DNA of 64,000 nt, taken from assembly GCA_032718475.1 (NCBI GenBank), contig JAUCBJ010007107.1:1-64000 (forward strand), written 5' to 3'. Both the position numbers and the translations under genes were made by a program. Positions 3,060-61,317 of this stretch are shown one piece after another (within the stretch, counting starts at the first letter, position 1; each line of letters opens with the position of its first letter). The notes under the pieces are model-generated. The model did not search any database. It saw nothing but the letters and a program-made list of their open reading frames with translations, and was not told the origin of the DNA. The DNA is from Nemertoderma westbladi (Eukaryota > Animalia > Xenacoelomorpha).

Positions 3060-3062
3060 GAC

Positions 3063-24153: not shown

Positions 24154-24197
24154 GTAATACGCGCTTTGTTTGCTGTAGGCTGTAGCGTACAGTAAAT

Positions 24198-31600: not shown

Positions 31601-34055
31601 TTTATTCAGTGACGCAAGTGATACCGGCTTTGGTATGGTAGCCTACCTTCGCCGAGAGGTAAGTCAGGACAAATTTGAGACGGCCTTTGTGACTTCTAGA
31701 TCAAAGACAATGCCGGTCAAATATATGACTGTCCCTCGTGCAGAGTTACAGGCGGCTGTAGTTTCGGTCGAGGTAAGTAAGCAAATAACTGAGGAGTTAG
31801 ACACGACATTGACCTTATTCTATTGGACGGACGCATCCTTGGTGTTAGTATACATTGCGGCCGACAATATTGCACTAAAGACATTTGTTGCCAACAGACG
31901 CGCTCAGATCGTTGATTTTTCGACGAAGGAACAATGGAGACATTGTCCGGGAGTGTTGAACCCGGCCGACATAACTTCGAGAGGTGCAATGCCGGCGGAA
32001 TTCTGTCAGGAAGAGTCGCAGGAGTTTTGGTTGCATGGACCTGAATTTCTAACGAGGACACAGGAACATTGGCCAGAGCGACTAAAGATAGTGACCAATC
32101 CGATGCCTGAAGATGCAGAAGTCAAAGTGGAGAAAGTCTCTAAGTCGAAGTCTAAAGCCAAACTTAAGTCATTGGAGCGGCCTGAAGAGTCATTGGAGCG
32201 GCCTGAAGAGTCATTGGAGCGGCCTGAAGAGTCATTGGAGCGGCCCGGAGACCTGTCAGACCAACAGACTTACGTGACTACTAGGTCCGGAAGGGTAAGT
32301 TATGACATCAAACCACCCTTACAGACTAAACCGCAGTCACAGTTGGTAAGTGACGGACAGAAAATGACCGACACAATGGAGCCTTTGGTTTCCAAACCTG
32401 CGGGTTTGGATTCGAAACTTCCATTAGTTAGCGGACAACCGTCGCTGGCATTAGAGTCATGCAGTGTTTATGACAAATTACTAAATTCGTCTGCCTCTTG
32501 GCTGACAATTTGTAAAAGAACTGCGTGGTTAAGCCGATACGTTTCGTACCTTTGTTTAAAACATTCGAAACATTTGAGAGAACCATTGAGCACCAATAGT
32601 GAGCGAATTCGGAAATTGAAACAACCTCTGACAGAGGATGAGATTGATCAAGCGGAATTAAAGCATTTGAAACATTATCAAATGTGTGCCTTCCCCAAAG
32701 AATTCCATCTATTATCGGCTCAACGACCAGTTCTCTATAAACCCCTTAGAAAATGGAGTCCATTAATCCATAAGGGTTTAATTTGTCATAGATCGAGAAT
32801 CCAGACTGTCGACATAAACTCACAGTTTCGGTTCCCAGTGATAATCCCTAGTCACCCAATAGAATTGCAAAGAGCGATTCTATGGGATATACACAAGAGG
32901 TTGCATCACGCGGGAAAGTTACACTGTTTGTCGGCAGCGAGACAGCGATTCATTCTATTGCAGCCAAGCAGGGCAGTCGGCACTATGTATGACGCCTGTC
33001 TGGTTTGCAAAAGGGTGAACGCCAGAGTATTGGAACAGGAGATGGCTGAACTCCCGGAAGCGAGAGTGCAGGCATATGACCCACCCTTTACGAATACAGG
33101 GGTGGACTGTTTTGGTCCGATTGAGGCAAAGAGTGGACGGCTGACCCACAAGCGATGGGGTCTGCTACTGACATGTATGGCTAGTAGAGCCATACACATC
33201 GAACGTGTGGCAGACATGTCGACTAAATCTCTGCTCCTGGCCTTAAAGAGATTTATGGCCAGGAGAGGACTAGTAAAGGCGTTCTACTCTGATAAGGGTA
33301 CAAACTTTGTCGGAGGGAATAGCGAGTTGAACGCGGCTCATAAAGCAGCACAGAATAAGGAAATTTCTGCAGCACTTTTGCCGCAACGAGTAGAGTGGAG
33401 ATTCAATACTCCAGAAAGTCCTTGGAGAGGAGGAAGTTGGGAGCGTTTGGTTCGCTCTGTGAAGCAGGCCATTGCCAAAACATTGCCTGTGAACAAACAA
33501 CTTACCGACGACGAACTGGTCACAGCCTTTATTGAAATCGAGCATACCCTAAACTCGAGGCTGATAGCTATGTTGCCAGACGGTGTTGCATTAACGCCGA
33601 ATCATTTGCTAATGCAGAGTCCAGCATTTCTTGTGCCGGCATCAGAACCCATTAGTGCCGACCTATATAGTCGTAAAAGCTGGAAGGTGACACAATTAGT
33701 GGCGTACACATTCTGGGAATATTGGCGGGAATACTATCTTCCCACCATATCCACCAGAACAAAGTGGTACAAAACGGTTCGGAGTCTCCAAAGGGGAGAT
33801 TACGTGTTGATAACCGAACCCATTGTCAAGAGAAAGTATTGGGAGACAGGAGTGATCTTGCACACACACCCAGACGTGCAAAACATAGTGCGCACAGTCA
33901 CTGTGAAAATTAGGTGCAAGTGTCCGCACCCAAAAAAGTGTAAAACTAATGGTTTACACACCTTGGACCGACCGGTCCAAGATATTGTGTTATTAGAGGA
34001 GACACGCATCGAGACGGGAGATTATAGTTTGTCTCCTGCCTCAAAACAGAGTTAG
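25617..34055 (+). CDS. BEL/Pao Gag-Pol polyprotein (2812 aa)
   Basis: Coiled-coil E/R repeats; Pao gag (FMGNHKHWRTF...EKFNYL); knuckles CWACLAPGHVRRQC and CMECGRLHHKLLH; protease LDTAS; RT DIEAMFHQ...FYMDD; RNase H FSDAS, PRAELQAA, WTDAS, NPADITSRG; integrase HHAG..CLVC, GVDCFGP, SDKGTNF, WERLV; order PR-RT-RH-IN. Confidence 0.97.
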   Translation: MSVSDKEALEDSYETAAGPPTDDSVNITVDDNADYDDAASDADVSEQEDETVTSEEEQQPHVIVLGSPTATVRKDCTATQPEVSDREGSVAEARARSPVSRPVGMVSAVVPTAVRSTRSFRNNPSSPPSVSQVSERELDIAIKKKLRAHAGHITRTADKVRKMLADPANIGRVELVEIRRGYNSALFKQTEELAVLAKKAVESQSSDVATRIYDRVLAALLEHRELSERFRRVRTENWLLWASQTQATQVSDAELRDLVEREEIQDKEERRYQREVTSWLMQNGVVVPGQVLPTTENIQQRTLTPPDDASRDSGDSQVSHARGKVICARSLVSHNSAEERRRRLDEQQAEVLRAQEARKEAERERERTRKLDAELRELEEISKRERAEREQRERELQAEREREELECEQRERELQLECEREAKKRELQLEREQEAKKRELQAERKRKKLDREQKERELQLECGRKERELEIEKRRRALYEEKARVEEESAARRAREEEERKLAQLESARLSLESEERTRKANEIAEKGMRMLEECGASVGTELRELFALQKAEQEARTPTIRESTTTRIPIPGPAITSTRIVKPFSTYRTPVGISASPIAQDLRHRNAAPLYTERDNGEFREETPTGRVFGEPNPRVWNTRTERRPSSTENFRVKPEEGSYERQRITQIEPTIQQNPSQEFITRDELSASLAQAISPHIQPITDMLSNLRLKEAAQVRSNSNPSRPELDKVQPSQRVRISEETIPHRPQVRTPVPNIHNPNFENSAERFIEEAWVRASARKPSRVLRTDTESSDEEEDMRRQKSRNYKERRTDAEQVSWNHRERTRLNNPAELNHLLTRNDATLRDIGKFAARQGLPTQQPQKFMGNHKHWRTFKTYVDEQLTNSTFTPNEKFNYLLQMLHREPRAIADNFVGNERAFELAMKTLSDIYGNKTKMAQSIVEDLGKGGRITTPLELLNLANAISNALDILRTVNLPHHGDHAEVLKSVIRRLNMRYRQKWRKLENKLEGQGKVLTLQHIHDMIATDAVAEMKSNFSEENMRESKPVTGKSMVSFDDDRTTVTFNSVDRYNSNTPAFRSDSRVWSGERLDRPRLKQQELPDGFVGCQYCLLKEVRSDDHKLDSCRRFKELNSEQRRVQVRTLDTCWACLAPGHVRRQCPNSKDGCMECGRLHHKLLHADFHTPTDRYLQRNPQRKGSKEPVSIRRNTYTGIQDDGYQPGSSDEDGESSAREVTCQGFTADSSSTSARTYLSSATSEIFSVIPVKLTGDKGSKRIYVMLDTASTLSYIDEEVARAVSSFQDAEEIQIELKSMHGVGDLKGHRISVELDSLLPRDQHTRQERKALPLDGFKCLAMKGFGRQLGKVPPMSPIAQEYFDKLRIPRHQVGYRNVSMLIGAEQLIAHQIWETRPAEPHVNGPHAHRTILGWYTRVPMSYEFTGGDKPMDRYDELQPITQPPLVEPPDIDEFRRTCIDHYSDFSESDEELIPDNVRLSEPLHNDRTDSEPEDYCYQTRGSGSAAHATYLTNVLTYTDIVEGQVAKYRDLDIFQYSEEELQKELIRQDLETGARTVEWLDRDAMEPGGYDLAMSTDEKRSLEMMEDTIRLLPTGHFEVGMLWRRQPPKLENNYSLALKRLNGVRARLLKNPDIREKYCAQINNYFAKGFAGKVEDPDLVTDQTYYLPHHYVTHPDKPDKVRVDNDCAAVYRGMSLNSELMDGPNLNNYLIGILLRFRQRRFAFTCDIEAMFHQVRACKADQDSLRFLWFENEDLSGPVVTYQMYVRIFGARDSPNGTLFVLKKTATAQIGKYPVEVIESILRNFYMDDGLVSKDTAEQAIEVAHGLQECLATGGFPLTKFTTNSEALLESFPVKDRGSGDIELGVEPIPMARVLGLAWNPNSDKFQVRVRFEPSSPDKVLTKRICLSTLSRLFDPMNFISPVILQARACMRKIWLSDLEWDEPISPIHAKQWREWEAELHLLKNIDVPRSYFPNQLVFPADLELHLFSDASDTGFGMVAYLRREVSQDKFETAFVTSRSKTMPVKYMTVPRAELQAAVVSVEVSKQITEELDTTLTLFYWTDASLVLVYIAADNIALKTFVANRRAQIVDFSTKEQWRHCPGVLNPADITSRGAMPAEFCQEESQEFWLHGPEFLTRTQEHWPERLKIVTNPMPEDAEVKVEKVSKSKSKAKLKSLERPEESLERPEESLERPEESLERPGDLSDQQTYVTTRSGRVSYDIKPPLQTKPQSQLVSDGQKMTDTMEPLVSKPAGLDSKLPLVSGQPSLALESCSVYDKLLNSSASWLTICKRTAWLSRYVSYLCLKHSKHLREPLSTNSERIRKLKQPLTEDEIDQAELKHLKHYQMCAFPKEFHLLSAQRPVLYKPLRKWSPLIHKGLICHRSRIQTVDINSQFRFPVIIPSHPIELQRAILWDIHKRLHHAGKLHCLSAARQRFILLQPSRAVGTMYDACLVCKRVNARVLEQEMAELPEARVQAYDPPFTNTGVDCFGPIEAKSGRLTHKRWGLLLTCMASRAIHIERVADMSTKSLLLALKRFMARRGLVKAFYSDKGTNFVGGNSELNAAHKAAQNKEISAALLPQRVEWRFNTPESPWRGGSWERLVRSVKQAIAKTLPVNKQLTDDELVTAFIEIEHTLNSRLIAMLPDGVALTPNHLLMQSPAFLVPASEPISADLYSRKSWKVTQLVAYTFWEYWREYYLPTISTRTKWYKTVRSLQRGDYVLITEPIVKRKYWETGVILHTHPDVQNIVRTVTVKIRCKCPHPKKCKTNGLHTLDRPVQDIVLLEETRIETGDYSLSPASKQS
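32167..32245 (+). repeat. In-frame 21-bp tandem repeat (SLERPEE x about 4) in the RNase H-integrase linker
   Basis: agtcattggagcggcctgaag at 32167, 32188, 32209, 32230. Confidence 0.9.
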
Positions 34056-34819
34056 TGTTGGACGCAACTCACTTCGTATGCATTCCTCGTATGCAAATAC
34101 AAGGAAATGCATAGGAGCGGGGTTGTGGTGATTTGCGTTGAGTTTTGTCTGGTGGGTATCAAAACAAAATTTTATTTTCAAAAATTTTGGAAAATTTAAA
34201 ATTTTTAAAAAATTAGAAGTGAACCCAAGACAATTCCAGACGCTGTGTATAGACGCGTTTTAGAATTCGTCTATAGATAAACAGTAATTTGAAAAGTCGT
34301 GAAGCCTGGAAAATAGCATTTAGAAACCATGGTGACGGCTATATTACGTAGGAGTGTAAATTGAGTTTAGCAACTTCCACAGATTGGTGCCAACAGTGCA
34401 ACTAAGGTGCTAAAGGTTAGTAGCACCAGAGGGGTGCACGGACCCCACTCAGTAGTTTGCAGGATGTGTGATGTTCGATTATCAAACCTGTGGGTTTGGT
34501 ATAGTCGAGTATTGTGGCTATAGTCCTTTCTAACTACTGTAGTTTAGTACGAGTAATGGGAGTAGTTTGGGCATCAAAAAGTGAGTTGGTCACGGCCAGT
34601 TTATCTCCAAAGTTTTTGCGCTATGCATGGGAATAGGTTAGAGGATAGTTAGTTAGGAAGAGACGGGATCTAGAGAGTCGAACCTGAACTGCTGGAAGGC
34701 GGGGGGGGGGGGGGTTCGGGAGGTCTGTCCTTCGGCGACATCTAACTGATTTACCCACAGTGTAGTTGGTTACGTAACGGCACTTATTGGGATATATATA
34801 TGTATATACGCGTAACATA

Positions 34820-37800
34820 ATGGAGAGGGATATTAGAGCGCAACCGCGCAGAGGATTTACTGCCAGAGAGGAGGCGGAGCTACCATTCGCGCGACCAGGA
34901 TGTAAAGACTCTAACGTTTACTACCATGGGCGGTCCGTGATGGAGCTGAACGGGAAGTATAAACCAAGTTATGATAAAGAATTACGGAGAGAAAGAATGA
35001 GAGCGTTGGGGGACCGGATGGAAGTCTTGCGGAGAGAGTATCGCACGCGGTATCCCTACGACTTTGCTTTGGACGTGTGCGACATTAGCGCAGATCCGGA
35101 CGAGGAAATCGCACGACTATACCATATGAATATGTATTTACGACACGAGGAGCCTCTACCTGCAGTCCGAGACCAGTTCGACGGAATGCACCTGTATCGG
35201 AAGACTCGAGGCGAGGATCAGGAGACGCCGAAAGTCTTCAGCGTATACAAGCTCTTCTACAAGTGTGGTGAATGCATGAATAAACAGGACGTGGCGATTC
35301 CCGACCGATTAGACGAGCAACATCCGGAACCGATATTAACGCGATGTCCAGCTCACCAATTCCTTAGATACAACGAGGGAGGTTACCCGATGAGCAACCC
35401 GATGATCAGTATCGACTTCAGCGGAAAGCGACCTCCGAGACCCATTACGCCGACCGTTACGACATTAGATCCGTATACGGAGATTAAACCCTGTTCGACA
35501 CCCAGTTTGATAGAGACGGCAGCAGCCATTTCGCTGTACCGAGCCTACAAGGATCTAGAGGCGCGGCGCGAAGCGGCGCGGGACTCGGGTACCAAACCCG
35601 TGGGTTTGGAGCTCTCGAGTCCCTGGACTGCGTTTACTTCACCTCACCGAGTGAGAAGCCTCACACCTGAGCATCAGGACGACATAGACGCGTTGCGGCA
35701 GGAGGAGCGAGCGGCGAAGGCGAAAGAGTTATTTGAGAACAGGATAGCGGAGTATAATAAGACCGCGGATAGACATCAAGAGGAGACGAGGAGAGTGACC
35801 GGATTTGTTCCACAGGTCGTATCTCAACCCGGACCGGTGTGTTATTCCGACGGCACCGAACCTGCGATATTAGTAGATCATCCGGAGTCGCGAGAAGCGA
35901 TACGATTCTTGCCGATGGTAAGAATGGCGGACCATTGGAATGTTGACTGTCTACGGGAAGTTTTATGCGCGAAGTTCTTGCGTGATGTCCCAATGCAGAT
36001 CACAGATTACGACACTTTGTACAAGATTGGAGCTCCGGGGAAGGAGAGTAAGTTATTCGGATGGTTGGATAAGTACATCAAGGTATGGGTCGCGGTGGCT
36101 ACATTCCCAGATGACGAGGAGGTAGACCAGACGTGGCTGAGGAGGAAGGGTTCTTATACCCGATATGATGACCACAAGGCTATTGAGCGCATGTGGACCC
36201 CATCAGATGAGATTCAGCGTCAGTGGAGGAAAACGGAGGAATCACTGCAGGATTGGAGAGTGATGTTCTACGACAATGAAGGAGGGTCCCATCAGGAATG
36301 CTTGACTAGCAAGTGTATTCAAATTCGTGCGGCCGATGGTGTGACTCATGTGTTTATGCGTGTGAGGGCGGATCGAGAGAGACCGGAGCCCATCATAACG
36401 ACACAATATCGGAAGGGGAAGGATCCTAGGGAACAGATTTTGGAGGTATGCAGGCGAGGAGGTATGCACGGAGCGGAGCGTATCGACGCCAGGATGTTAC
36501 CCAAGAAAGCTAGAGAGGCTATTCTCAACCAAGATTACGTCAAGGTGGGATCGGGAGTCCAGAGCGATTTGGAGAGCGACTTCAACGCCATGACTGATCT
36601 GGAAGATAGATTGCCGAGACCGTTTGTCGACACCAAGCTATTGTTGCTATGGGCACAGGATATTGGAATTTATAGGGAGTATCCCAACTCTGCCAAGACT
36701 GGTATGGGCTTTATAGCACACTTGTTGTATAATTGGGACTTTAAGTTAAAGACGCAGAAGAAGTACGAGGAGGCGTATGGTGAATACAACACGCCACCGG
36801 GAGCGGAGTTCAAATCCCACTTCAAGCGGCAAGCGTTAGTGTATTGGAACATTTGCGCGCCACCCCGTGCGTCGCTACAATATTATTTGGTGCTTGAGTC
36901 GAACACGGTGACTTGTTTATTAGCGGATATCGTTGCGCGAGTTTTGAAGCGTCATCCATTGGTATTCGGAGGAGATCAATACGTTCGCTCGAAAGGGGGA
37001 ATCCAATCCGACGTGATGAAGCGTTTCTTAACCCCGTTCTTCAACCAATCGTTAGAGAATACGTCGATGGTAAGGAGAGGATTAGCGATATTCGAAGGAG
37101 TATATCGACAGAACATCGGAGATTTGGGAGACCGACCGTCGATGGAATATCCGACGCCAGAAGCTTTGGAGAAGTGGTTCAGGAATCAAACCCGCGGGTT
37201 TGGTACTCCCTTCCACTCGGAGGCTGATAGACCTGTTAAGGAGGGCTGGCCGGAAACGTTAGTAGAGGTGTTCGGAGTAGATCTTCCGGTGGAGAAGACA
37301 TATCCGAAACGAACGCGGGAGGAAATATTGGAGATAGAGGACAAGGGCGAGGATGTTTACTTTGTTCCGGATCGACAACCGTTGACCGGAGAGGACGACA
37401 TCGTATTAGACATTGGGAAGGAAGGAAGTGCGAAACCGATTGGAGACCTCATATACGAGAGGGCCTGGTTTCCACAAGCGCGTAGGTGCAAATTGTGCGG
37501 CAGCACAAGGCACAATCTAAAGTCGTGCGACGCGGTAGTAGAGGCGGCGCATAAGGTCTGTCGTTGGTGTAATGAGACCGACCATTCGTTTCACACGTGC
37601 ACCGTCTTCATTTCTCAATGTGGATATTGTGGAGTAAAGGGACATCGTAGCGCGAGATGTCAGCTGCGAGATGATTCCTTTCAAAACCATAGCGCTAACC
37701 TACTTCGGGAGATGTTAGATAAGTGGGAGAGTGTGGCGGATTACCATATTCAAGCGCAGATGCGTTGGTTACCATTTAAAGCGGGATATGGGTTTTGGGC

Positions 37801-38527
37801 GGTAGACCCATCGCATGTTGCGTACGAGCCATATCTACAATCGCTACCACAATATCAGGAGCTCATCCTAACTGCTCAAGACCTTCCACAGAACACTGGA
37901 GTTATCGTAGTCCGAGAATACTTCAGACAATTGAACATGGACAATAAGTACACATGGAACTTCGTTGCTATTTGCGATCGCATCACGAAGGGTGTATTTA
38001 CGGAGACTAGAAAAGTGGTACGCGCGCGAGGTGATTGGAGGATGGCGGCTATACAATACCGCAACGAATTCTTGTTGACTCATGTGCCAGTGGGTTCATT
38101 GACCGCCGAGAGGATACAGGAACAAAGGATCGCAGCGACCACAGCGACGACCGCTGGAGCTCAAGGCTCGCGGAAAGAACGAGGAGGAGGGGTCCAAGAC
38201 AAGCGTCAAGTCAAGGACGACCACTACCACTCCATTATAGAAGCTCAACGGTTGCAGCGCAAGGCGCAGGGGGCGTCTGAGAAAGCGCGTGTGCAACTGC
38301 AGAAGGAAGAGTTGGCGGAAGCGACCACGGGAGCGCGACAATTGGGACGAGGCCGAGGGAGAAGTTCAAGCCGAGAATCTGTCGGGGCTCAGGGAACGTC
38401 GTCGCCGGTTCCGGGGAGTGACGCCTCACGGACGCCGTCAACGGAGTCGACTAGAGGTAGATTAGTGTATCTGGGAAGGGGACGAAAGAGAGGAGCGAGC
38501 CCAAAGAACCCAGGAGCGGGTCGATAA
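34820..38527 (+). CDS. Accessory ORF2 of element 1 (1235 aa from first ATG); three CCHC zinc knuckles, basic RG-rich tail; function unknown
   Basis: Uninterrupted 3.7-kb ORF between pol and the 3' LTR; CKLCGSTRHNLKSC, CRWCNETDHSFHTC, CGYCGVKGHRSARC; no signal peptide or TM segment evident. Confidence 0.88.
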   Translation: MERDIRAQPRRGFTAREEAELPFARPGCKDSNVYYHGRSVMELNGKYKPSYDKELRRERMRALGDRMEVLRREYRTRYPYDFALDVCDISADPDEEIARLYHMNMYLRHEEPLPAVRDQFDGMHLYRKTRGEDQETPKVFSVYKLFYKCGECMNKQDVAIPDRLDEQHPEPILTRCPAHQFLRYNEGGYPMSNPMISIDFSGKRPPRPITPTVTTLDPYTEIKPCSTPSLIETAAAISLYRAYKDLEARREAARDSGTKPVGLELSSPWTAFTSPHRVRSLTPEHQDDIDALRQEERAAKAKELFENRIAEYNKTADRHQEETRRVTGFVPQVVSQPGPVCYSDGTEPAILVDHPESREAIRFLPMVRMADHWNVDCLREVLCAKFLRDVPMQITDYDTLYKIGAPGKESKLFGWLDKYIKVWVAVATFPDDEEVDQTWLRRKGSYTRYDDHKAIERMWTPSDEIQRQWRKTEESLQDWRVMFYDNEGGSHQECLTSKCIQIRAADGVTHVFMRVRADRERPEPIITTQYRKGKDPREQILEVCRRGGMHGAERIDARMLPKKAREAILNQDYVKVGSGVQSDLESDFNAMTDLEDRLPRPFVDTKLLLLWAQDIGIYREYPNSAKTGMGFIAHLLYNWDFKLKTQKKYEEAYGEYNTPPGAEFKSHFKRQALVYWNICAPPRASLQYYLVLESNTVTCLLADIVARVLKRHPLVFGGDQYVRSKGGIQSDVMKRFLTPFFNQSLENTSMVRRGLAIFEGVYRQNIGDLGDRPSMEYPTPEALEKWFRNQTRGFGTPFHSEADRPVKEGWPETLVEVFGVDLPVEKTYPKRTREEILEIEDKGEDVYFVPDRQPLTGEDDIVLDIGKEGSAKPIGDLIYERAWFPQARRCKLCGSTRHNLKSCDAVVEAAHKVCRWCNETDHSFHTCTVFISQCGYCGVKGHRSARCQLRDDSFQNHSANLLREMLDKWESVADYHIQAQMRWLPFKAGYGFWAVDPSHVAYEPYLQSLPQYQELILTAQDLPQNTGVIVVREYFRQLNMDNKYTWNFVAICDRITKGVFTETRKVVRARGDWRMAAIQYRNEFLLTHVPVGSLTAERIQEQRIAATTATTAGAQGSRKERGGGVQDKRQVKDDHYHSIIEAQRLQRKAQGASEKARVQLQKEELAEATTGARQLGRGRGRSSSRESVGAQGTSSPVPGSDASRTPSTESTRGRLVYLGRGRKRGASPKNPGAGR

Positions 38528-42740: not shown

Positions 42741-43911
42741 TGTTCGCGCTTTTAGACCTTTTAGCAGCTAACCTGCCAATTTAAATGTACTTTTAATTAT
42801 AAATCGACTTTTGCCCTTACCAATTTGCTGAATAGTACTGAATTTACATCCGCCAAAGCCAGTCCGTGCGCGGCGTATGACCCACTATGTGGGAGACTGG
42901 AGTCGGGTCCAGAGAAAGTTTATTGCGGTCTAGGCTACTTTGTATTATTCGATTGATCACTACTATATAATTTCCGACAACTATATTTACTTTCGGGAAA
43001 TATTAACAGTTCCTTTAGGACGTGGCGCTTTAAGTATAAAAACAGAGTTATGACTTACACTAATCACAACTAGATGGCTATAGAATCTCGTAAATAGCGC
43101 ATTATTCAGGAGATGCTTTATTAACCTTCACACTACTTCACACGACTTCACACTACTTCACACTAAGTCACACTAATTTGCCGACCGTCACTGACTTTGA
43201 TCATATATAAGGAGGATTGCTACTGACACACGTAGGGATTATGAAATAGCATTTAATTCACACAAAAACCACTATAATTTGAGTCACAGTTGCTACCGGT
43301 AGACCCTTCTGCTTACCTCAGTAATTAAGAAAGTTTAGGGGTTTACGATTATTTATCGGTATTCTCCAAATATAACATCCATTAACCCTCCAGTTATCTT
43401 GCTGTCGTGAAGGGGTTAATATAAACAGCAATTAACAACAATATAAAACAGCATTAAAACAGTGCGGTGAACAGTCAGTATGTGTTCATGAAGTTCAGTA
43501 TGATAAGGTGCGGTTTGTATGTTCGATGCAATGTGCAGTAAGGTTTGATGAGTTAATAGATTTATGTTCTTATAACTCCAGCCATCAGATGTTCTTGGGC
43601 CAAAGTCTGAAACGTCTGTACTTAGTACTGTACTGAATCCAGAAAGGAATCGGATTCTCAGAAAAACTATAACTGCGCATGCGCCAATTTCCACAGGTAG
43701 GTCTCTATTGGCATAACTGGGAAGATTGCTCTGATTGGCTGAAATATGCCCAAACAAAGGAACCTCCACGTACACAAAGAATCAGCTGACAGATTTCATC
43801 ATCTTGGTTCTAATTTCTGACCGACGCATAGTTGAACAATTTTAGGCCTTTTTAGAGTATTCAGCGCATTGCGTAAAAATGACTTGTTATGTCCGCAAAA
43901 GCTTTTTTGCA
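42741..43911 (-). mobile_element. Diverged solo LTR related to the element 2 LTR
   Basis: tgttcgcgcttttagacc... is the reverse complement of the LTR end ggtcttaaaagcgcgaaca; ccgcaaaagcttttttgca is reverse-similar to the LTR start tgtaaaagcttttgcgg; internal matches (ctttcgggaaatatta.cagttcctttaggacgtggcgct); no matching TSD seen. Confidence 0.8.
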
Positions 43912-46789: not shown

Positions 46790-47919
46790 TGTAAAAGCTT
46801 TTGCGGGATATAACTGGCCCTTTTGCTTCGCAATCCAGTTTCCCTTAATGCGCTCAAATACTCTAAAGAAAAACTCCCTAACTCAAAGGATGAAAGCTAC
46901 CGGCTGATTGGCTGATTTGCCTAGCGACGGCCTCTTTGTTGGGTTCGATCAACCAACCAGAGCAAGGTCAACCAAGCAGAGCGATTCAGCCTTATGTTGG
47001 CTAAATCAATGTAATTGGCTGCAAAGGCTAGGGTGGTTTGGCATTTTAGACGATTTGGAACCTGTGGAATATGGAACTCTGCCAATGAGAGCTTTTCCTT
47101 TCTGTGTTGAAATCTACCTGCAGCAGCTCACAGGGTTCAGTGTGTTGGTTTTCCTGATGCCATGCACATCGGCCATGGAATTATTCTGAATTATTCCAAC
47201 ATTAGAACGTCTTTAATTATAAGATCACATAACTGTTACCGGTACTACGGTACATGACCAGCACTGGACAGCGTGAGGACCGGTACGGTACCTGCTGCTG
47301 TATTGCACATTATTTACTGCTATTTGCTGTTTGTTATTAAATGTATAATTCGTTTGCATATTGTTATTTGGAGAATAACTATAAACGATCAGAAACCCCG
47401 ATCTTCTTGATACACTAAGGTTAGAGAGACCGGCTACATATAGCAATTGCGGCTTATATTATCGTGGTTTGTAGTGTGTAGTGAATTGAATGCTATTTTA
47501 TAGGCCCTACAAATGCCGGTTGCTATTCTCTTTATATATGATTAAAATCAGTGACTATCGGCAATTCAGTGTGCAGCGGTGTGCAATAGTCTGTATGTGC
47601 TTGTCCGCGTAACAAAGCATCTCCTAAAGAATGCGTCTTATGTGTAACTTATAATCCATTCGTTGTGTTTAGTGTAAGCCATAGCTCTGTTTATATAGAT
47701 AGAGCGCCACGTCCTAAAGGAACTGCTAATATTTCCCGAAAGTGAATAATATTTGTCAGAGATTATATATTAACGATCAATCGAATAGTACGGTAGGCCT
47801 GCACCGCAATCAAATTAAAGCATCCGAATCCAGTCTCTCGGGTATATCCAGCGGGTGAATGGTCGCGCATAGACTGGCTTCGGCTAATGTTGGATTTATT
47901 TGTGTCAAATACTTGTCAT
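46790..47919 (+). repeat. First (3'-truncated) LTR of element 2
   Basis: Matches 49552 onward until acttgtcat, then jumps via tcat microhomology to the sequence equivalent to 58474. Confidence 0.92.
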
Positions 47920-47925
47920 TATAAT

Positions 47926-49473
47926 ATGGATAAACTTATATAGCAGATATGATTGAGTTGATAGAAGATGAGCTTGGTATCAGGGAGCGATATACTCTAC
48001 CTTTACAAGCGTTTGTTGATAGCTTGATACGCGGCGACGCTGGTCCAACTACTACGGAGGACGATGGTCGTTATATCTAACCGCCAATCTCCCGGGAGCA
48101 ACTTGCGCGTGGGTTGGACTGTAGAAAATTTACCGCTCGCTATACGCATCGTAATGGTATGTATATGGACTTCTTAACTACTGGTCATCCTATCGACCTA
48201 CACGATACGAACGATATAGACACCAAAAGGGAAATGGTTTTATTTAAATATCATACCCAGCGGAAGCGGAACGATAAAATGAGACTCGAACACGAAAATT
48301 CTATTCGAAACCGACTTGAAAGGAAGATGTTGAAGAGCCGGATAAACGCAGCGACTTCACCAAAATATCTGGAATTCTTGAGAGAAGCCTATCTTGATAT
48401 TACCAGTCAACAGAACCTAGAGACTCGATATCCTCAAGGTATACATCATGACCGCATGGTAGAACTCAAACAGCTCTATTCCACTATGATGTATCTTACC
48501 GTCGATCGACCGCTACCTGTTGTACCGGATAGCTTCGAACGGATGGAGGAATATTGTAAGCTGGAGAAAGATCACTCGCGTTTCCCCTATAAGACGTGCG
48601 TCTTTGGTATTATTGAGATGAATGCCCTAGACCCAACCAACAAACGGAAAGATATAAACATCCGCGGAGACGTTGCGCTAAACACGGTTTTACTCGCTAT
48701 ACTTACGGGAGTTTCGAGCGAAACTTGTTCGATGTATCACCTACGCTCGCTCGGCTCAAACGATCCTTAAATAAACCTATGATCAGAGTTCCGGAATACT
48801 CGATCAGACCTCCTCATTCCCTAGTGAGACCTCAAGCTCTTGATCTTAATAGTATGACGGATCCTCCTGAACTGTATTCATTGTTTAAAGATCTAGTGTT
48901 ACCCGAGCAATTAGTCGGTGGCACTCCGGTTGTGGGCTCCCTAAATATCCGCCCATCTTACCTGGCCGGATTGGGGCACGGACACCTGATATCGCCATTC
49001 AACCGTATAATCGTAATCGTCCCCGTTTAACACGATACAACCGTCATCAAGGTGGAGGAGAGCGTTGTATGAAACGAGTTAAACGCTATTCTACAAAGAT
49101 CAGAAAAGAAACCTACGTTTGTTCAGATAAACTTAAATTATAACGGCAAGTCCAAGCGGTAAACGGATTGGCTTTATCCCAGTTCGATTGGGAAATCCCG
49201 AATCTCTAAGACGATATTGAGCTTGGATGACCCTATTCTCGGCGAGAGTTTGGACGAACGTATCCAACGATGAGCGGAGGAAAATCAGCTCGAGGAGAAG
49301 CATATCGAAACGGCGGATACCCCGACCATAATCCTACACCTTATGATGCAATCACATTGCACCCTTCACCCAGGAGTTATGGCCCTCCTAGTAAAGTGGC
49401 TCCCCCCAAAGAGAAAAGGACTCTTGCTAGCTTTAAAAAACTGCGTAAACGCCGTCCACGCAAGACAGACTAA
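47926..49473 (+). pseudogene. Fragmented accessory 3' ORF of element 2, duplicate copy
   Basis: Identical ORF pieces (218, 101 and 67 aa) to 58484-60031, offset 10558. Confidence 0.6.
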
Positions 49474-49551
49474 CTGTTTAGAGTATTTTTATATTTTAGA
49501 AACTGTGATTTTTTATATTTTATAGAATTAAATCCCATTTTCTGGGAGCGG

Positions 49552-50759
49552 TGTAAAAGCTTTTGCGGGATATAACTGGCCCTTTTGCTTCGCAATCCAG
49601 TTTCCCTTAATGCGCTCAAATACTCTAAAGAAAAACTCCCTAACTCAAAGGATGAAAGCTACCGGCTGATTGGCTGATTTGCCTAGCGACGGCCTCTTTG
49701 TTGGGTTCGATCAACCAACCAGAGCAAGGTCAACCAAGCAGAGCGATTCAGCCTTATGTTGGCTAAATCAATGTAATTGGCTGCAAAGGCTAGGGTGGTT
49801 TGGCATTTTAGACGATTTGGAACCTGTGGAATATGGAACTCTGCCAATGAGAGCTTTTCCTTTCTGTGTTGAAATCTACCTGCAGCAGCTCACAGGGTTC
49901 AGTGTGTTGGTTTTCCTGATGCCATGAACATCGGCCATGGAATTATTCTGAATTATTCCAACATTAGAACGTCTTTAATTATAAGATCACATAACTGTTA
50001 TCGGTACTACGGTACATGACCAGCACTGGACAGCGTGAGGACCGGTACGGTACCTGCTGCTGTATTGCACATTATTTACTGCTATTTGCTGTTTGTTATT
50101 AAATGTATCATTCGTTTGCATATTGTTATTTGGAGAATAACTATAAACGATCAGAAACCCCGATCTTCTTGATACACTAAGGTTAGAGAGACCGGCTACA
50201 TATAGCAATTGCGGCTTATATTATCGTGGTTTGTAGTGTGTAGTGAATTGAATGCTATTTTATAGGCCCTACAAATGCCGGTTGCTATTCTCTTTATATA
50301 TGATTAAAATCAGTGACTATCGGCAATTCAGTGTGCAGCGGTGTGCAATAGTCTGTATGTGCTTGTCCGCGTAACAAAGCATCTCCTAAAGAATGCGTCT
50401 TATGTGTAACTTATAATCCATTCGTTGTGTTTAGTGTAAGCCATAGCTCTGTTTATATAGATAGAGCGCCACGTCCTAAAGGAACTGCTAATATTTCCCG
50501 AAAGTGAATAATATTTGTCAGAGATTATATATTAACGATCAATCGAATAGTACGGTAGGCCTGCACCGCAATCAAATTAAAGCATCCGAATCCAGTCTCC
50601 CGGGTATATCCAGCGGGTGAATGGTCGCGCATAGACTGGCTTCGGCTAATGTTGGATTTATTTGTGTCAAATACTTGTCATAGGCTAAAGTCGATTTATA
50701 ACCTAGAAGACATATAGATTTGGCGGGTTAAACTGCCAAAGGTCTTAAAAGCGCGAACA
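49552..50759 (+). repeat. Middle LTR of element 2 (5' LTR of the longer unit)
   Basis: tgtaaaagc...gcgcgaaca, preceded by tgggagcgg; appears identical to 60110-61317. Confidence 0.95.
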
Positions 50760-51039
50760 GTAACAGTTATAGCTTCTTGATTGCGGCGTAAGCAATCAAG
50801 TTGATAGTACCGGTCGACCGGTAACCAGTAGGCCTGACTGCCTGATCATCCGGACCGGTACTTACTTACAGTACAGGTACAGCAGTATTATTTCGAGTGT
50901 GATATATTGTATATTGTAGGCTGTTAGGGGATTAGGGATTGATCACCCCTTATTCCTTTGCATGGTTTACTTATTTCTGTCAGTTTTATTTACTAGTAGG
51001 CTAATATTGAGCAAAAGACGTGTAAACCTGCTCAGATTG

Positions 51040-51615
51040 TACAGATAATTTGTAGGCTGGACTGTTGTCTGACTGTTGATAGGTCTGAACGGATTGCAGT
51101 GCATGTAGAGTGTATGTCCGATAAAGTGCCGGTTAGAAATGTAGGGGCAGCCAGAGCTGTAAGGTAAATCCCCCACCGAAAGAATAAGTCGTACTACTAG
51201 GTTAGAACGCATACTAACTAACCATTTCGGAGTCTGCATGTCCTGTAGTTTATTTAGGCTTAATAGTAGTCTGCCAGCGTTTGGTCTGTACTTTGTTTGT
51301 GTAGTCTGTACGGGTAGCGTATAATTTTATTTAGATAATTTGTAGGCTGGATAGTTGTCTGACTGTTGTTGGGTTTGAGGAAATTTCGGTGTGTGTAGAG
51401 CATCTGTCCGATAAAGTGTTGGGAACGTAGGGGCTTCAAGTGCTGTGAGGTAAACCCCCTGTGAAGGAATAAGTCGTACTACTAGGTTAGAACGCATACT
51501 AACTAATCATTTCGGAGTCTGCATATACCGTAGTTTGTTTAGGCTTGATAGTAGTCTGTCAGTATTTGGTCTGCATTTTGTTTGAGTAGTTTGTACGCGT
51601 AGCGTAATATTTATT
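51040..51615 (+). repeat. Diverged duplication of about 290 bp in the leader of element 2
   Basis: agataatttgtaggctgga...gaataagtcgtactactaggttagaacgcatactaacta occurs twice (about 51043 and 51333). Confidence 0.8.
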
Positions 51616-52917
51616 ATTCAGAGTTTATGCGATTATTCGCAACATTCATATCCCCAAGTTTATTCCTACAGTAATTGTGTTTGTTATACATACCGTTATA
51701 GTTAAACTAACCCCGGTACTACATCAGGGCTGCTCGGCGTAGGTAAAGACTGGAGATTTTGTGCTTTGGTCACTCCGGCAGATACCGTGGTTCTTTTAGC
51801 TGTTCAAGTATTTTTAACTACTGATTATTTGTTGTACAAGTACTTGTACCTAATTTAGGGTTTAGTGTACAGTGCTTTCCGAAAGCAATTAGTGTGTAGG
51901 CAGTTTATTTGTGTTGTAAAGTGGTTAATAGGCACGTTGGTTCTGGTAGACCGCGGTAATTAATCTCTAGGTAGGAACACTCCGTGATACATAACGTAGT
52001 ACCTATAGCGATACGGTTATAGGTCGTCAGGCGGTGGTATTTTCCTATCTGGACAACGCAGTATATTTACTACTACTTATTATTTTCAAATACCGTAGTA
52101 ACCTGTCCGTCGTAATAACCAGATATTCTAACCCTTTGTTAGGCTGGTTTGTAGATTCCCTGTAAAATTACCCTAAAAATTCGTATTTGTGTATTTGTAA
52201 TTTTTGTGTTTATTTAGAGATTGTAATCTCACCCAGATTGTACGTAATTTGTAGTAATAAGTAACTTAGGTAAATTAGAATTATTTGTTTTAGTGTCCAA
52301 TAATTAGCACTTCACTGAGAGCGCACAGCTTTTGTGTAGTGATTAATTCCCAGAAATAATAACATCTATTTCAATATTGTAACAAAACCCCTCATACGGG
52401 TACATATAAATCCACTAAATCTATTAATAAAATAGTAGGCCTGTTATACAACAACTAGGTCTCAATATCAGTTGGACTACTGCTTAAATAACGGTAATAA
52501 AGTAAGTTAAAGTAACCAAGTAACCCTAAAATGTTCAGAAATTCAATTATTCTAAAATAATTGACATACCAGTATTTACCATAGGCTTATTATATTTATT
52601 TCTATAAATTTGAGCTGAAATCATACCGGTAATCTGTAATTAATTCTAGTCCATAATTATACTTATATATACTATCAGTGTAAGCTGTATACCGGTATTC
52701 ACGATAGGCCTATTATATATTTATATATATTTGTACTAAAATTATATACCGGTACTCTGTGACAAACCTAGTTTACAATACTTATATATACTATAAGTGT
52801 ATACCGGTATTCTAATATATTGTAATTAATTACCGGTACTAGGCTAACAGTGATACTGAATTACTAGACTTGCTTTGACTGTAATATAGCAGTAGGCATT
52901 CAACTGTACAATCAAAC

Positions 52918-54789
52918 ATGTCTGACACAAAACGGGCACTGTCAGATAGTTCGGATCCCCTTCTCATCCTTCCTGTAGCCGTACTCAAAAGGGTATTGAT
53001 TGCGGTGGAGGAGCACCAGATGGATTGGGCGAAAAGTGAGCGATCGACCAAGGATAGTTATGCGGGATACACGAAGGAGGAACTGAAGTCTATTGTCGAG
53101 ACGCAATGGAATTTCCCCGGACCCGGACTCCCGTTTAACTTATCGAAAGCTGGCTGGGAGGACTTATACAGGATGGGAGTGGTATGGAACACTAGGGATT
53201 CGGCTAGGTGGAAGGAGTCGGCAGCAGGATATGTACAGAGATTCTTCAGCTCTCTGTTGCGATTGGAGGAGCAGATGTTTCAGCGGCCTCACGGACCTCG
53301 GGAGCAGGAAGAGCTGTTTTATCAAGTTCGCGAACGAGTTCTGTGGATCAGACTAATTCTTTCAGCCTATAAGAAAGTCTCAAGGATAAGCCAAGATACG
53401 TCGTTGCGGGTCGCCGTAAAGACTTGGTTCTGGCGAGTGAGTCTTAAAGTCCAAGAAACGACTCAATGGAAAGCTCTGCTAACCGAGCACATGACCCAAG
53501 GAGAATCAACAGACGCTGTCTTTTCTCAAGTGGAAGGCGAAGCGACGGCAGAGAAACCTCAGAAGAAGGACGCAAGCGTTACGTCATCTGATGAAGGCGA
53601 TACCACTGATCCTGAAGGCGGAGGAAATAGATCTCGTTCCAACGGACGTAGAAGAATGCCTCACTGTCAGAAATTGCCTAATCTGCCCCCAGCTGGGAGA
53701 AGGCAACTAGCTCGCACAGACTTAGGTAGTACAGAACCCACAGACCAAATTATTACAGTAGAAAGACTCCCTACTGTAGTAGATGAGCCTGAAATAATTA
53801 GGCCTGTTCTTGAAATCACCCCTTCGGTGATAGAGACACCTGTGCTCCCAGAACCTGCCTATAAATTCCCTTCGTACAGTACTAAACTACCTGTGCCCAG
53901 TAGGACTGTTCCCGAGTCCGAACCCGTCCTGGACGCCGAGCGAGATATCAAGAATTTATCGCCCGTCGTCTCTCGCTCGCCCGCTACTACTTTGGCGACT
54001 CCCGCTTCGGCGGTTGAGTGGGTAGCTGAGGGACGACGGGAGATGGGTCTCCTGCTCAAGCAGCTGAGGGAACACTGTTTGTGCTCCTCTCAGCAGGTCC
54101 AGGAAATGGAAGAGACTGTTCAGCAGCTCAAGGGAACAGTAAGGGAAAGTAGGTTAGAGTTGCAAAAGGTGCAGCAAAGTATCGCGTTAGAACGCGATAA
54201 ATTAGTCAATTTACAAAAGGGTATACCACCACCCCCTGTAACAATGTGTCAACCCGTTAGGTCTGAAGTATCTCATGCGCAAGGTGTGGAGCCTACACGC
54301 ATCTATACTGCTAGTGAAGTAGAAACTCCTATAGTAAACCCTATTCAGGGTGATTATAAACCTGTTGATAATAATATTCCATATAGACCTGATCATAATC
54401 CGAGAAACTTATATACCGATAATTCTATATTCAATAATATGATGGCTCAAGAAAGTTTTACGCGTCAAATGGCTAGAACCGAAGCCCGTCAAGCGGTAAA
54501 GGTTGGAGAGATCGTCAAGTTCAATGGAGATGAGATGAAATGGTTACCTTTTAATGAATATTACAAAGATAACATACAGAATTCTGTGCTATCTAACGGA
54601 GAGAAACTCAGATACCTCATCGAATGCTTGGAAGGACCTCCCAAGTTAATGGCGTTAAAATTTATTGGACATCCAGATGGCTTAAGACAAGTTTGGGATA
54701 CATTAAACATCAGGTATGGTAATAGGACTAACATAGCTAGGTATTTAGGTATTTGGCGCCCCGAAAGTTTCTTAGCAGCGGGATTATAG
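52918..54789 (+). CDS. BEL/Pao Gag, N-terminal part (element 2), ends at a frameshift
   Basis: KFNGDEMKWLPF...LSNGEKLRYLIECLEGPP...YGN aligns with element 1 gag KFMGNHKHWRTF...EKFNYLLQML...YGN. Confidence 0.8.
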   Translation: MSDTKRALSDSSDPLLILPVAVLKRVLIAVEEHQMDWAKSERSTKDSYAGYTKEELKSIVETQWNFPGPGLPFNLSKAGWEDLYRMGVVWNTRDSARWKESAAGYVQRFFSSLLRLEEQMFQRPHGPREQEELFYQVRERVLWIRLILSAYKKVSRISQDTSLRVAVKTWFWRVSLKVQETTQWKALLTEHMTQGESTDAVFSQVEGEATAEKPQKKDASVTSSDEGDTTDPEGGGNRSRSNGRRRMPHCQKLPNLPPAGRRQLARTDLGSTEPTDQIITVERLPTVVDEPEIIRPVLEITPSVIETPVLPEPAYKFPSYSTKLPVPSRTVPESEPVLDAERDIKNLSPVVSRSPATTLATPASAVEWVAEGRREMGLLLKQLREHCLCSSQQVQEMEETVQQLKGTVRESRLELQKVQQSIALERDKLVNLQKGIPPPPVTMCQPVRSEVSHAQGVEPTRIYTASEVETPIVNPIQGDYKPVDNNIPYRPDHNPRNLYTDNSIFNNMMAQESFTRQMARTEARQAVKVGEIVKFNGDEMKWLPFNEYYKDNIQNSVLSNGEKLRYLIECLEGPPKLMALKFIGHPDGLRQVWDTLNIRYGNRTNIARYLGIWRPESFLAAGL

Positions 54790-56864
54790 AGTTTTCCGAT
54801 GAGATTCAGGAGATCTGTAGACAGCTAGATTGGTTAGGTAAGTCTCATGAATACCAGAACTCTATGGCTGTAGGAGCCTTAGCATCTACTTTACCAAAGG
54901 GTGGAGTAGGTACACGCTGGGACAAGAAAGTGTTATATATGATGGAACAACAACAACGAGACCCTACCATGGCTGATCTCATGTCATTCTTGGATGGCGA
55001 AGTGAAATTACAGCTCATAAAGCAGTCCAGAGAGAAAACACCGGAAAACAAGGTAAGTGAGAAACCCGTCTCTAGGAGAAAGGTAACACCAGTGTGTTAT
55101 ACAGACGACGGCGAAAGCCAGACTGCTCAAGGAGAGGATAGCGGGAAAGACACTGAAAGATCTTACTATGACAACAAAGCGACTAAGGACGTAAGTAAAT
55201 TCAAGTCTCGAACCAATGACAGGAGAGAACAGGTAAGAAAAACTCCTCCTACGTCTCCCAAGAGAATTCAGGTGAGAAAGCCCGAGGAAAGAACGAGCGT
55301 GCACCACACAGCACATGTTAAAGTAAGTAACATCAAGCCCAAATGTGTGTTGTGCGACGGGCCCCACCGTTTGAATATGTGTGGTAAATTCCTAAAGAAA
55401 TCATTAAAGGATAGACGTGAAGTCATGTGGGATAAGCGGTTGTGTTATAATTGCCTCAGACGAGGACACCAACGGCGAACCTGTTACTCCGACGCAAGGT
55501 GTGCGAAGTGCGGCGCGAAACATCATATTTTGTTGCACACCGAATTCGAAAGAAACAGCCCGAGTCAGGTAAGTGAGTCCAAACTACATGTCCAATTCAG
55601 TGATGTGAACGACACTGACCAAAGTTCTGAGATGGAAGGATTCTATACGGACGAATTCTCCGACCAAATTTCTGAAATGGAAGGATTCTATACGGACGAA
55701 TTCTCCGACCAAATTTCTGAAATGGAAGGATTCTATACGGACGAATTCTCAGACGAAAACGAATCCTGTTACTTAATAAATACCGCAGTGTATCGAGCAC
55801 TTACGTATGAGAAGGAAACCGACAGTGAGCTCCCCCTAACTACTTCTGACAGACAACCATCTTGGAAAGCGCCACCTTCCAATGTAGGAATCCGAGAATT
55901 TCCTGTAGTCCAGGTAAGGGTCCACGGACCTAAAAGGAGTTATGTAGTGAACACCCTCCTTGACTCCGGTAGTACAGGAACATTCATCGACAAAGAACTA
56001 GCCGAAGACATCTTTGCTGGCCAACCCAAGTTCCGAACTAAGCTAAACATGTCAGGAATTATGCCGGTTTGGAAATCTACAGTAACAGCGGATTATTATG
56101 TAGGTGCGTTGTCCACCCCCCAGGACGAACTAGGAGAACATAGCATAAGGTCAGTGAAAATGGTGGCAATAAAGAACTTCGCGACCAGCCAAGTGGAACC
56201 TTATAACTGGGATGAGGACGATTTCACCCAGCAGCTTGAAATACCTAGATTCAACACCGATTACCCTGGAGTCCAAATACTCATCGGTCAAAATGCGCAT
56301 GAAGCGCTCGAGACATTGGAGAAACGGCCTGCTCAACCGCAACCACTACAAGTCTATGCGGGAAGAACTAGAGTAGGTTGGTACTTTACTGGCCCTTCTC
56401 GTAGAACTCTTATAGAAAGATTACCAAAAGAACAGGTATATCAATTAAGTGAACGGGAAGTGGAGAGCAGTGAAGTTGACGACCCAACTGAGGGAACACC
56501 ATACTCCTCAGATAATGACGACATCAACTCCAATGTAGATCAATGGAGACATTGCCCCGAGACGATCAATCTAGCCGACATCGCCTCCAGAGGAGCAACT
56601 CCTCAAGAACTGATAGATACTCCAGCGTGGTTAGGTGGACCCGACTTCCTAAGTAAAGAAGATGAATGGCCTCCTCATCTTACCCCGGCTAAGATTAGAC
56701 AAGCCAATGGAGCGGAGAAAGTAACACAACCACTCAATCGCCCAGCTGGTCGTTTATGTTTACTGGAAAGAGACCGAAAACTGTCCGGAAACTATGGAAG
56801 GCAAGATACTCTTCCCACGACCACTTCCCTAATCCGACAAATATCTAGGGACTCCATAACGTAA
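54753..56864 (+). pseudogene. Gag C-terminus plus protease fused to the RNase H tail; RT and integrase deleted
   Basis: CVLCDGPHRLNMC, CYNCLRRGHQRRTC, CAKCGAKHHILLH, protease LLDSGS, then directly QWRHCPETINLADIASRG...WLGGPDFL; no YxDD or DDE core; 45-bp repeat SEMEGFYTDEFSDQI x3. Confidence 0.85.
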
Positions 56865-60031: not shown

Positions 60032-60109
60032 CTGTTTAGAGTATTTTTATATTTTAGAAACTGTGATTTTTTATATTTTATAGAATTAAATCCCATTTTC
60101 TGGGAGCGG

Positions 60110-61317
60110 TGTAAAAGCTTTTGCGGGATATAACTGGCCCTTTTGCTTCGCAATCCAGTTTCCCTTAATGCGCTCAAATACTCTAAAGAAAAACTCCCTA
60201 ACTCAAAGGATGAAAGCTACCGGCTGATTGGCTGATTTGCCTAGCGACGGCCTCTTTGTTGGGTTCGATCAACCAACCAGAGCAAGGTCAACCAAGCAGA
60301 GCGATTCAGCCTTATGTTGGCTAAATCAATGTAATTGGCTGCAAAGGCTAGGGTGGTTTGGCATTTTAGACGATTTGGAACCTGTGGAATATGGAACTCT
60401 GCCAATGAGAGCTTTTCCTTTCTGTGTTGAAATCTACCTGCAGCAGCTCACAGGGTTCAGTGTGTTGGTTTTCCTGATGCCATGAACATCGGCCATGGAA
60501 TTATTCTGAATTATTCCAACATTAGAACGTCTTTAATTATAAGATCACATAACTGTTATCGGTACTACGGTACATGACCAGCACTGGACAGCGTGAGGAC
60601 CGGTACGGTACCTGCTGCTGTATTGCACATTATTTACTGCTATTTGCTGTTTGTTATTAAATGTATCATTCGTTTGCATATTGTTATTTGGAGAATAACT
60701 ATAAACGATCAGAAACCCCGATCTTCTTGATACACTAAGGTTAGAGAGACCGGCTACATATAGCAATTGCGGCTTATATTATCGTGGTTTGTAGTGTGTA
60801 GTGAATTGAATGCTATTTTATAGGCCCTACAAATGCCGGTTGCTATTCTCTTTATATATGATTAAAATCAGTGACTATCGGCAATTCAGTGTGCAGCGGT
60901 GTGCAATAGTCTGTATGTGCTTGTCCGCGTAACAAAGCATCTCCTAAAGAATGCGTCTTATGTGTAACTTATAATCCATTCGTTGTGTTTAGTGTAAGCC
61001 ATAGCTCTGTTTATATAGATAGAGCGCCACGTCCTAAAGGAACTGCTAATATTTCCCGAAAGTGAATAATATTTGTCAGAGATTATATATTAACGATCAA
61101 TCGAATAGTACGGTAGGCCTGCACCGCAATCAAATTAAAGCATCCGAATCCAGTCTCCCGGGTATATCCAGCGGGTGAATGGTCGCGCATAGACTGGCTT
61201 CGGCTAATGTTGGATTTATTTGTGTCAAATACTTGTCATAGGCTAAAGTCGATTTATAACCTAGAAGACATATAGATTTGGCGGGTTAAACTGCCAAAGG
61301 TCTTAAAAGCGCGAACA
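60110..61317 (+). repeat. 3' LTR of element 2
   Basis: TG...CA, preceded by tgggagcgg, followed by TSD acttt. Confidence 0.95.

Follow-up and report, generated by a model that had tools for sequence, protein, structure and literature searches.

Self-complementarity at the primer-binding position of two BEL/Pao retrotransposons from Nemertoderma westbladi, and intron-split complements among their relatives

How does a retrotransposon of the BEL/Pao group begin DNA synthesis if the bases that follow its long terminal repeat (LTR) do not form a primer-binding site (PBS) for a tRNA? This question is raised by a 64-kb window of the Nemertoderma westbladi assembly (contig JAUCBJ010007107.1, positions 1 to 64,000), which contains two BEL/Pao elements, here called element 1 and element 2, and one lone LTR, element 3. 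In elements 1 and 2, the bases that directly follow the LTR are complementary to a stretch within the same LTR. By analogy with Tf1, a retrotransposon of Schizosaccharomyces pombe, we consider it likely that in both elements a segment of RNA from the element's own LTR serves as the primer for minus-strand DNA synthesis. Features lie on the plus strand unless stated otherwise.

Pairing between the LTR and the primer-binding position in elements 1 and 2

The middle LTR of element 2, LTR-b, ends at 50759 and is followed by G and TAACAGTTAT (50760..50770), a PBS-position sequence that does not begin with TGG and whose GT start lies at offset 0 from the LTR end. Within LTR-b, the exact complement ATAACTGTTA at 49991-50000 is followed by T50001, which forms a G-U pair with the PBS, and the candidate self-primer at 49991..50001 forms 10 Watson-Crick pairs plus this terminal G-U pair (-10.4 kcal/mol). 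The candidate self-primer of the outer 5' LTR, LTR-a (47229..47239), forms 11 Watson-Crick pairs with the PBS, with C47239 giving a G-C pair (-11.7 kcal/mol), and the copy in the 3' LTR, LTR-c (60549-60559), has T as its next base, as in LTR-b. All letters and coordinates given by the first-pass annotation of this locus are correct, including the G-U pair and the G-C pair in what it took to be the first LTR copy. That copy is actually the truncated outer 5' LTR (46790-47919) of a tandem structure in which 49552-50759 is the middle LTR.

Likewise, the PBS-position sequence of element 1 (24154..24164) does not begin with TGG and reads G followed by TAATACGCGC. Its candidate self-primer (23104..23114) reads GCGCGTATTA followed by T, and forms 10 Watson-Crick pairs and one G-U pair (-15.2 kcal/mol). 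The register of the duplex is common to both elements, with the 3' end of the LTR stretch pairing with the first base after the LTR and pointing into U5 (the unique 5' region). Calculated duplex energies identify each candidate self-primer as the best site for its PBS within its own LTR, and the cross pairs between the two elements do not form (-0.4 and -1.6 kcal/mol). No TGG occurs within the first 8 nucleotides after the LTR in either element, so the tRNA-type PBS described by the International Committee on Taxonomy of Viruses (ICTV) is absent there. Both elements show the combination that marks Tf1-type elements, namely a post-LTR sequence complementary to about 11 nucleotides of the element's own LTR and no tRNA site.

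A self-BLAST of the window (E<1e-8) reveals no similarity between the LTRs of elements 1 and 2. Together with the coordinates, this confirms the earlier observation that dissimilar LTRs followed by different PBS letters form a 10(+1)-bp duplex in the same register. The first-pass annotation called the pairing covarying, which does not hold in the strict sense for these two elements, whose sites cannot be aligned.

We compared these matches with what chance would produce. A contiguous match of at least 10 is present in 24 of 3000 dinucleotide-shuffled LTRs for element 2 and in 39 of 3000 for element 1, and host positions used as a mock PBS reach the same length in 46 of 7000 cases (element 2) and 72 of 7000 cases (element 1). 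The chance probability is about 0.01 for each match, which is modest for either one alone, and about 1e-4 for both together. None of the 27 PBS sequences of other families (0/27) reaches 10 contiguous pairs in either LTR; when split matches at any GT are allowed, foreign PBS reach 10 in 3/27 cases for element 2 and 6/27 for element 1. A primer split by an intron, as is common among the relatives, was rejected for both elements: the best split match is 8 in element 1 and 7 in element 2, and shuffles do equally well in 33/40 and 20/40 cases, respectively. The match is contiguous in both, and elements 1 and 2 are the intron-less form.

Complementarity and intron-split complements in BEL/Pao relatives

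Relatives were collected by scanning metagenome contigs with an alignment of reverse transcriptase (RT) and RNase H, and the best 80 of 481 confirmed loci, which are 35-43% identical to element 1, were retained. The LTR and the sequence following it are readable in 34 of these 80 loci; subtraction of eight family mates (L003, L044, L017, L026, L033, L043, L075 and L076) leaves 26 families. The LTR end was set by two LTR copies in 14 of the 26 and by eye from the terminal motif in the other 12.

A perfect complement of 10-15 nucleotides to the post-LTR sequence (offset 0-5) is present in the family's own LTR in 25 of the 26 families. With elements 1 and 2 included, 27/28 families have an own match of at least 10, as compared to 38/756 swapped pairs of LTR and PBS when any GT donor is allowed and 22/756 with a donor list picked after viewing the data. 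Several of the swapped-pair matches fall between families with a common PBS. Among the 16 families whose LTR end is fixed by two LTR copies (elements 1 and 2 included), 15 pass. The sole failing family, L064, has a TGG tRNA-type site. The PBS starts with GT or AT in 25 of the 28 families by strict pairing, and those of elements 1 and 2 also start with GT, like relatives, once the G-U pair is counted. Sister families in a quick tree, which includes no reference elements, differ at 3/13, 1/10, 4/11 and 6/10 PBS positions and are all still perfectly matched, with no PBS differences in the sister pairs L012-L022 and L012-L009. A conserved self-pairing at the primer site of this BEL/Pao group is strongly supported by these sequence comparisons.

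In L064 (235-405 and the following bases), the TGG site is identical to the tRNA-Met PBS reported for metazoan GalEa elements, rather than to a tRNA-Arg or tRNA-Gly site (PMC5445492). In another side observation, L075 and L076 lie on one contig and form a head-to-tail BEL/Pao array with a 6138-bp period, in which single LTRs are common to adjacent units. No relatives were found in viral contigs, and a pattern search with the LTR end and PBS start gave a single, unrelated match.

The main feature of most relatives, which is invisible from the window alone, is that the complement is split. In 19 families it is interrupted by a predicted intron with canonical GT-AG ends in the LTR, and in 6 relatives it is contiguous, as in elements 1 and 2. 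The 5' part of 4-10 nucleotides ends at the GT, and the 3' part of 3-8 nucleotides follows an AG located 66-423 nucleotides downstream. The split-match search imposed no splice-site quality. GT[AG]AG donors are found in 15 of the 20 best split solutions with any GT allowed, as compared to 50 of the 1302 GTs in these LTRs, and the pyrimidine fraction ahead of the acceptors is 0.71 versus 0.54. For 14 loci with canonical split matches, two of which are family mates, PBS shuffles do as well as the real sequence in 0-3 of 200 cases. Since the complement exists only across the splice junction, these data point to pairing in the predicted spliced RNA. In the quick tree the contiguous forms occupy four separate places among the split forms, which fits repeated precise intron loss, the direction of which is not proven by the tree.

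These relatives also bear on the transcription start that the first-pass annotation had placed near 49991, at a pyrimidine-purine step. Both window elements have such a step and only 4 of 25 relatives do, so the prediction found no backing, and a pyrimidine-purine start-site signature is ruled out as a family feature. The suggestion that the duplex begins at the transcription start is likewise not supported, and exon 1 contributes just 4-10 paired nucleotides in intron-split families.

A candidate priming mechanism and its alternatives

Because the pairing occupies a fixed place at the LTR edge, has primer polarity and a primer-like length, and is accompanied by no tRNA site, it points to a role in priming. 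The first-pass annotation had argued for a conserved self-pairing priming mechanism. The pairing is borne out by 25/26 families, compensatory differences between sisters and intron-spanning matches, whereas priming itself we infer from position, polarity and the analogy with Tf1. In Tf1, the transcript's first 11 bases anneal to the PBS, and RNase H cleaves between bases 11 and 12 (PMC7175516). By this analogy, transcription would start in the LTR at or upstream of the self-primer stretch, the stretch would anneal to the PBS, and a cut in the RNA where the duplex ends on its 3' side, with the element's RNase H as the probable enzyme, would create a new 3' end. RT would then extend this end through U5 and R (the repeat region) and jump to the 3' LTR. 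In intron-split relatives, the host spliceosome would first have to join both primer halves in the cap-proximal LTR. The copy in the 3' LTR would keep its intron unspliced and pass it on, given that everything upstream of the cut would be copied from the 3' LTR. If the 3' copy were spliced too, the result would be a precise intron loss and a contiguous primer, as in elements 1 and 2. Element 2, in which neither an RT nor an integrase match was found, would depend on mobilization in trans and would have retained the cis signal. We speculate that the intron may restrict priming to the cap-proximal copy.

In tRNA-primed elements, plus-strand synthesis copies the primer into the PBS. If the same occurs here, the complementarity would be self-renewing and its letters would be free to drift, as is seen. 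As for the broader proposal, we regard the case as evenly balanced: a widespread, tRNA-independent branch of animal BEL/Pao elements may have its RT primer assembled by the host spliceosome from two LTR exons, with cap-proximal splicing licensing replication, the 3' copy retaining the intron, and repeated precise loss leaving elements such as 1 and 2 with a primer that is already contiguous.

Several observations weigh against self-priming in elements 1 and 2 or against its generality. The match ends 1040 nucleotides before the LTR end in element 1 and 759 in element 2, as compared to 46-203 nucleotides in 25 relatives, and no intron that would shorten this long loop can be named; acceptors in the element 2 LTR score at most 6.5 on a splice-site profile built from 12 relatives, whose training range is 11.4-18.7. 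The helix is predicted when the RNA is bounded by both sites (mean pair probability 0.89 and 0.98), but in predicted folds with 55-75 nucleotides of extra leader its probability drops to 0.00-0.03. In the longer fold of element 1 the PBS folds back locally on the LTR end as a hairpin, and in that of element 2 a degenerate PBS-like stretch in the leader (50821..50829) captures the primer segment. The 12 LTR ends chosen by eye carry a risk of circularity, and the site of L018 begins with TGG too, yet has a 10-nucleotide split match. The 46 remaining loci entered a blind scan, in which 14 were short of upstream DNA, 3 lacked a long open reading frame (ORF) and 29 were scanned; 7 of the 29 beat all 20 shuffles and the other 22, not individually checked for a whole 5' LTR, did not. 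A blind PBS prediction for the element 3 subfamily was not seen among the variants or loose ends listed, and a two-way alignment does not put the element 3 candidate opposite the element 2 primer site. In the quick tree, element 1 is a long, unplaced branch that is not set within the split-primer clade, and element 2 has no RT by which to place it.

The distance of the sites from the LTR end is also what would be expected if the family-wide signal were real and the matches of elements 1 and 2 were chance or vestigial, with priming left to something else, such as an internal tRNA fragment. The LTRs of these elements exceed those of most relatives in length by a factor of 3-5, each match has a p of only about 0.01, element 1 has no settled place in the tree, and priming by half-tRNAs is known for some Copia lineages (PMC6317226). 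Against this stand the presence of a match in both elements, with a common register and the relatives' GT start, and the failure of any of the 27 foreign PBS to reach 10 contiguous pairs in either LTR. We consider this explanation improbable. Slightly less probable still is that the duplex is a conserved RNA structure serving packaging, dimerization, translation control or a splicing checkpoint, with priming accomplished otherwise. Alternative folds do exist, and conserved non-priming hairpins at the PBS position have been proposed for fungal GalEa elements (PMC5445492). However, the pairing always starts 0-5 nucleotides from the LTR end with primer polarity and 10-15 bp, it takes the place of the TGG site, the one tRNA-type relative lacks it, and no alternative primer is in view.

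The primer might instead act in trans, with either a distinct LTR-initiated RNA, short or processed and in most families spliced, or the second packaged genome annealing to the PBS. No loop of 760-1040 nucleotides would then have to be closed, the intron kept by the unspliced template would be accounted for, and the extra ORF of element 1, for which there is a weak 3'-5' exonuclease lead, could trim such an RNA. Nevertheless, no such RNA has been seen, the exonuclease lead is unconfirmed, and the cis mechanism has a precedent in Tf1; of the three alternatives we deem this one the least probable. Tf1-like self-priming in cis is our preferred explanation for elements 1 and 2.

Contigs from four sequencing runs provide additional observations on element 2. 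Their summed depth over U3 (the unique 3' region) and the primer region (about 1e4 in run X1) is far below that over the LTR end and leader (at least about 1e5), and the depth over 50763-50786 is also low by the same comparison, at about 1e4 to 4e4. No substitution is listed inside 50760-50770. These depths, which are a weak measure because contig depth is no copy number, hint that subfamilies of element 2 differ in the primer region and the PBS region. One contig from run X4 is identical to 50769-50806 (38 bases) and has 20 extra letters ahead of 50769. These 20 letters resemble what we take to be the template-switch adaptor of SMART-type cDNA libraries. As a lead, the contig may mark an RNA 5' end inside the PBS, similar to the primer-less downstream transcription start described for Tf2 (PMC5341516), with the limit that this is one contig and that contigs cannot show starts or splicing.

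Element anatomy, surrounding features and known systems

Both elements have the LTR features expected of BEL/Pao (TG...CA LTRs, a polypurine tract and a target-site duplication), and by protein relationship, as judged from their sequences, both belong to BEL/Pao. Element 1 has a 5' LTR of 2203 bp (21951..24153) that pairs with a 3' LTR at 38834-41036 with 4 differences, and its 5-bp target-site duplication is GGTGG. Its gag-pol (25614..34055) encodes 2813 aa of BEL/Pao type with PF05380, PF03564, PF18701 and PF17921 and the Pao-type domain order of protease, RT, RNase H and integrase; PF05380 is present in 120 of the 120 element 1 homologues listed. The extra ORF (34778..38527; 1249 aa) has no significant Pfam match. 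An ESM Atlas search gives a weak lead to 3'-5' exonuclease clusters (score 0.91, 153/256 features, PF01612 on 50% of members), and zinc knuckles at its C-terminal end are likewise a weak lead. A single-sequence structure model of this ORF was uninformative (predicted local distance difference test score, 32), and a PDB search gave just a weak unrelated match. Extra ORFs of the DEDDy type are known from rotifer LTR elements (PMC5408684). The element 1 leader contains two tandem 134-bp copies (24198-24482) that span the LTR end and PBS. The LTR end and the first part of the PBS are imperfectly duplicated there, at 24240 and 24374; both duplicates have a mismatch to the primer at the final position, whereas the genuine PBS matches perfectly.

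Element 2 is a tandem three-LTR structure (46785-61322). LTR-a is followed in turn by a duplicate of the 3' internal region, by LTR-b, by the internal region itself and by LTR-c, and copies of the 5-bp target site ACTTT flank the whole at 46785-46789 and 61318-61322. LTR-a (46790..47919) has a deleted 3' end and 4 differences from LTR-b. LTR-b (49552..50759; 1208 bp, TG...CA, with a polypurine tract just before it) is identical to LTR-c (60110..61317; 0 differences). The duplicated region (47916..49551) is identical to 58474-60109, is joined to LTR-a by a 4-nucleotide microhomology and contains a 229-aa ORF of unknown kind. The tandem with its internal deletion at the microhomology may have arisen by unequal exchange between LTRs, in which case LTR-a would be the original 5' LTR, carrying the full 11 Watson-Crick pairs; alternatively, the 2844-bp exact duplicate may be an assembly artefact. 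The coding region (52885..56864) consists of gag (DUF1759) and a second frame with a zinc knuckle and protease region followed by a short RNase H-end remnant (56529-56681). It carries PF03564 and is about 27% identical to element 1 in gag and protease. Matches to the element 1 polyprotein are confined to gag, protease and the short RNase H-end piece. Because no RT or integrase match was found in the coding region, element 2 is classed as non-autonomous. The element 2 leader contains two direct repeats of 285-290 bp that are 82-87% alike (51043-51622).

Element 3, the lone LTR (42741..43911, minus strand), is a relative of element 2 (about 72% over the 3' half); its U3 and primer region have diverged from those of element 2, and no PBS is attached. 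At 50181, downstream of its primer site, the element 2 LTR has a donor-like site, and a canonical GTAAG donor of the element 3 LTR falls opposite it in the alignment. The two possibly mark an LTR intron unrelated to the primer. Elsewhere in the window, a WAPL homologue at 6285-9353 is a single open frame of 1022 aa with about 30% identity to its best matches, which are from vertebrates, in keeping with a divergent animal host. A 411-bp unit is present in 5-6 exact tandem copies at 2796-5150, with a related 62-bp piece at 44558-44619, and a 22-bp tandem array lies at 1765-1964. No match to a tRNA, a tmRNA or an Rfam family turned up in a scan of the window.

The literature searched, as far as the texts were accessible, yielded no description of self-priming or of a splice-built primer in BEL/Pao elements; prior mention is possible in Repbase Reports, GyDB, the full ICTV report, subscription journals or supplements, and the slash spelling of the name may escape a search. 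The available text of PMC3118150 contains no occurrence of primer, PBS, tRNA or intron, and that of PMC554778 none of PBS or tRNA. Few LTR groups are as abundant in animals as BEL/Pao. If self-priming is true, BEL/Pao would be the third superfamily with this mechanism, beside Ty3/gypsy (the Tf1 group) and one plant Copia lineage (predicted). A splice-joined primer would couple the replication of retrotransposons to the host's spliceosome and would raise a puzzle, namely how an intron can persist in DNA that is copied by way of RNA. Self-priming would also account for the failure of tRNA-based PBS finders to detect these elements, which are predicted to escape control by tRNA fragments.

Compared to known systems, the elements described here share with Belpaoviridae (genus Semotivirus, ICTV) the domain set and order, TG...CA LTRs, polypurine tract and metazoan host (PMC8742986). 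The ICTV profile describes BEL/Pao elements as tRNA-primed, with replication that is poorly understood, and lists an 18-nucleotide PBS that pairs with tRNA-Arg or tRNA-Gly, LTR lengths of 0.2-1.2 kb and genome sizes of 4.2-10 kb (PMC8742986). In contrast, no tRNA PBS is found here, and element 1, with 19 kb (21951-41036), 2.2-kb LTRs and a 2813-aa polyprotein, exceeds the stated sizes. Fungal GalEa Copia elements resemble those studied here in that a self-pairing element (Conserved Hairpin Site) replaces the tRNA PBS, but their hairpin lies downstream of the LTR with no LTR complement found, whereas here the partner is inside the LTR (PMC5445492). For the plant Ty1/copia elements TAR, Houba and Osr-1, self-priming has likewise been predicted from PBS-LTR complementarity; these belong to a plant Copia lineage, and no intron-split primer is mentioned in the text available (PMC6317226). 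The closest likeness is to Tf1/Tf2 and the Tf1/sushi and Tcn1 groups, which, as here, have no tRNA site and about 11 post-LTR nucleotides complementary to LTR-derived RNA (PMC7175516, PMC6317226, PMC5341516). The Tf1 group belongs to Ty3/gypsy, whereas Pol here is of the BEL/Pao type and not of the chromovirus type. Furthermore, the Tf1 primer is the first 11 nucleotides of the transcript, whereas the BEL/Pao group here has no conserved start-site signature; no primer intron is mentioned for Tf1 in the text available, whereas 19 relatives here are intron-split; and the loop of 760-1040 nucleotides in elements 1 and 2 is unlike Tf1. Elements 1 and 2 lie outside the Tf1/sushi group, but they probably work like Tf1.
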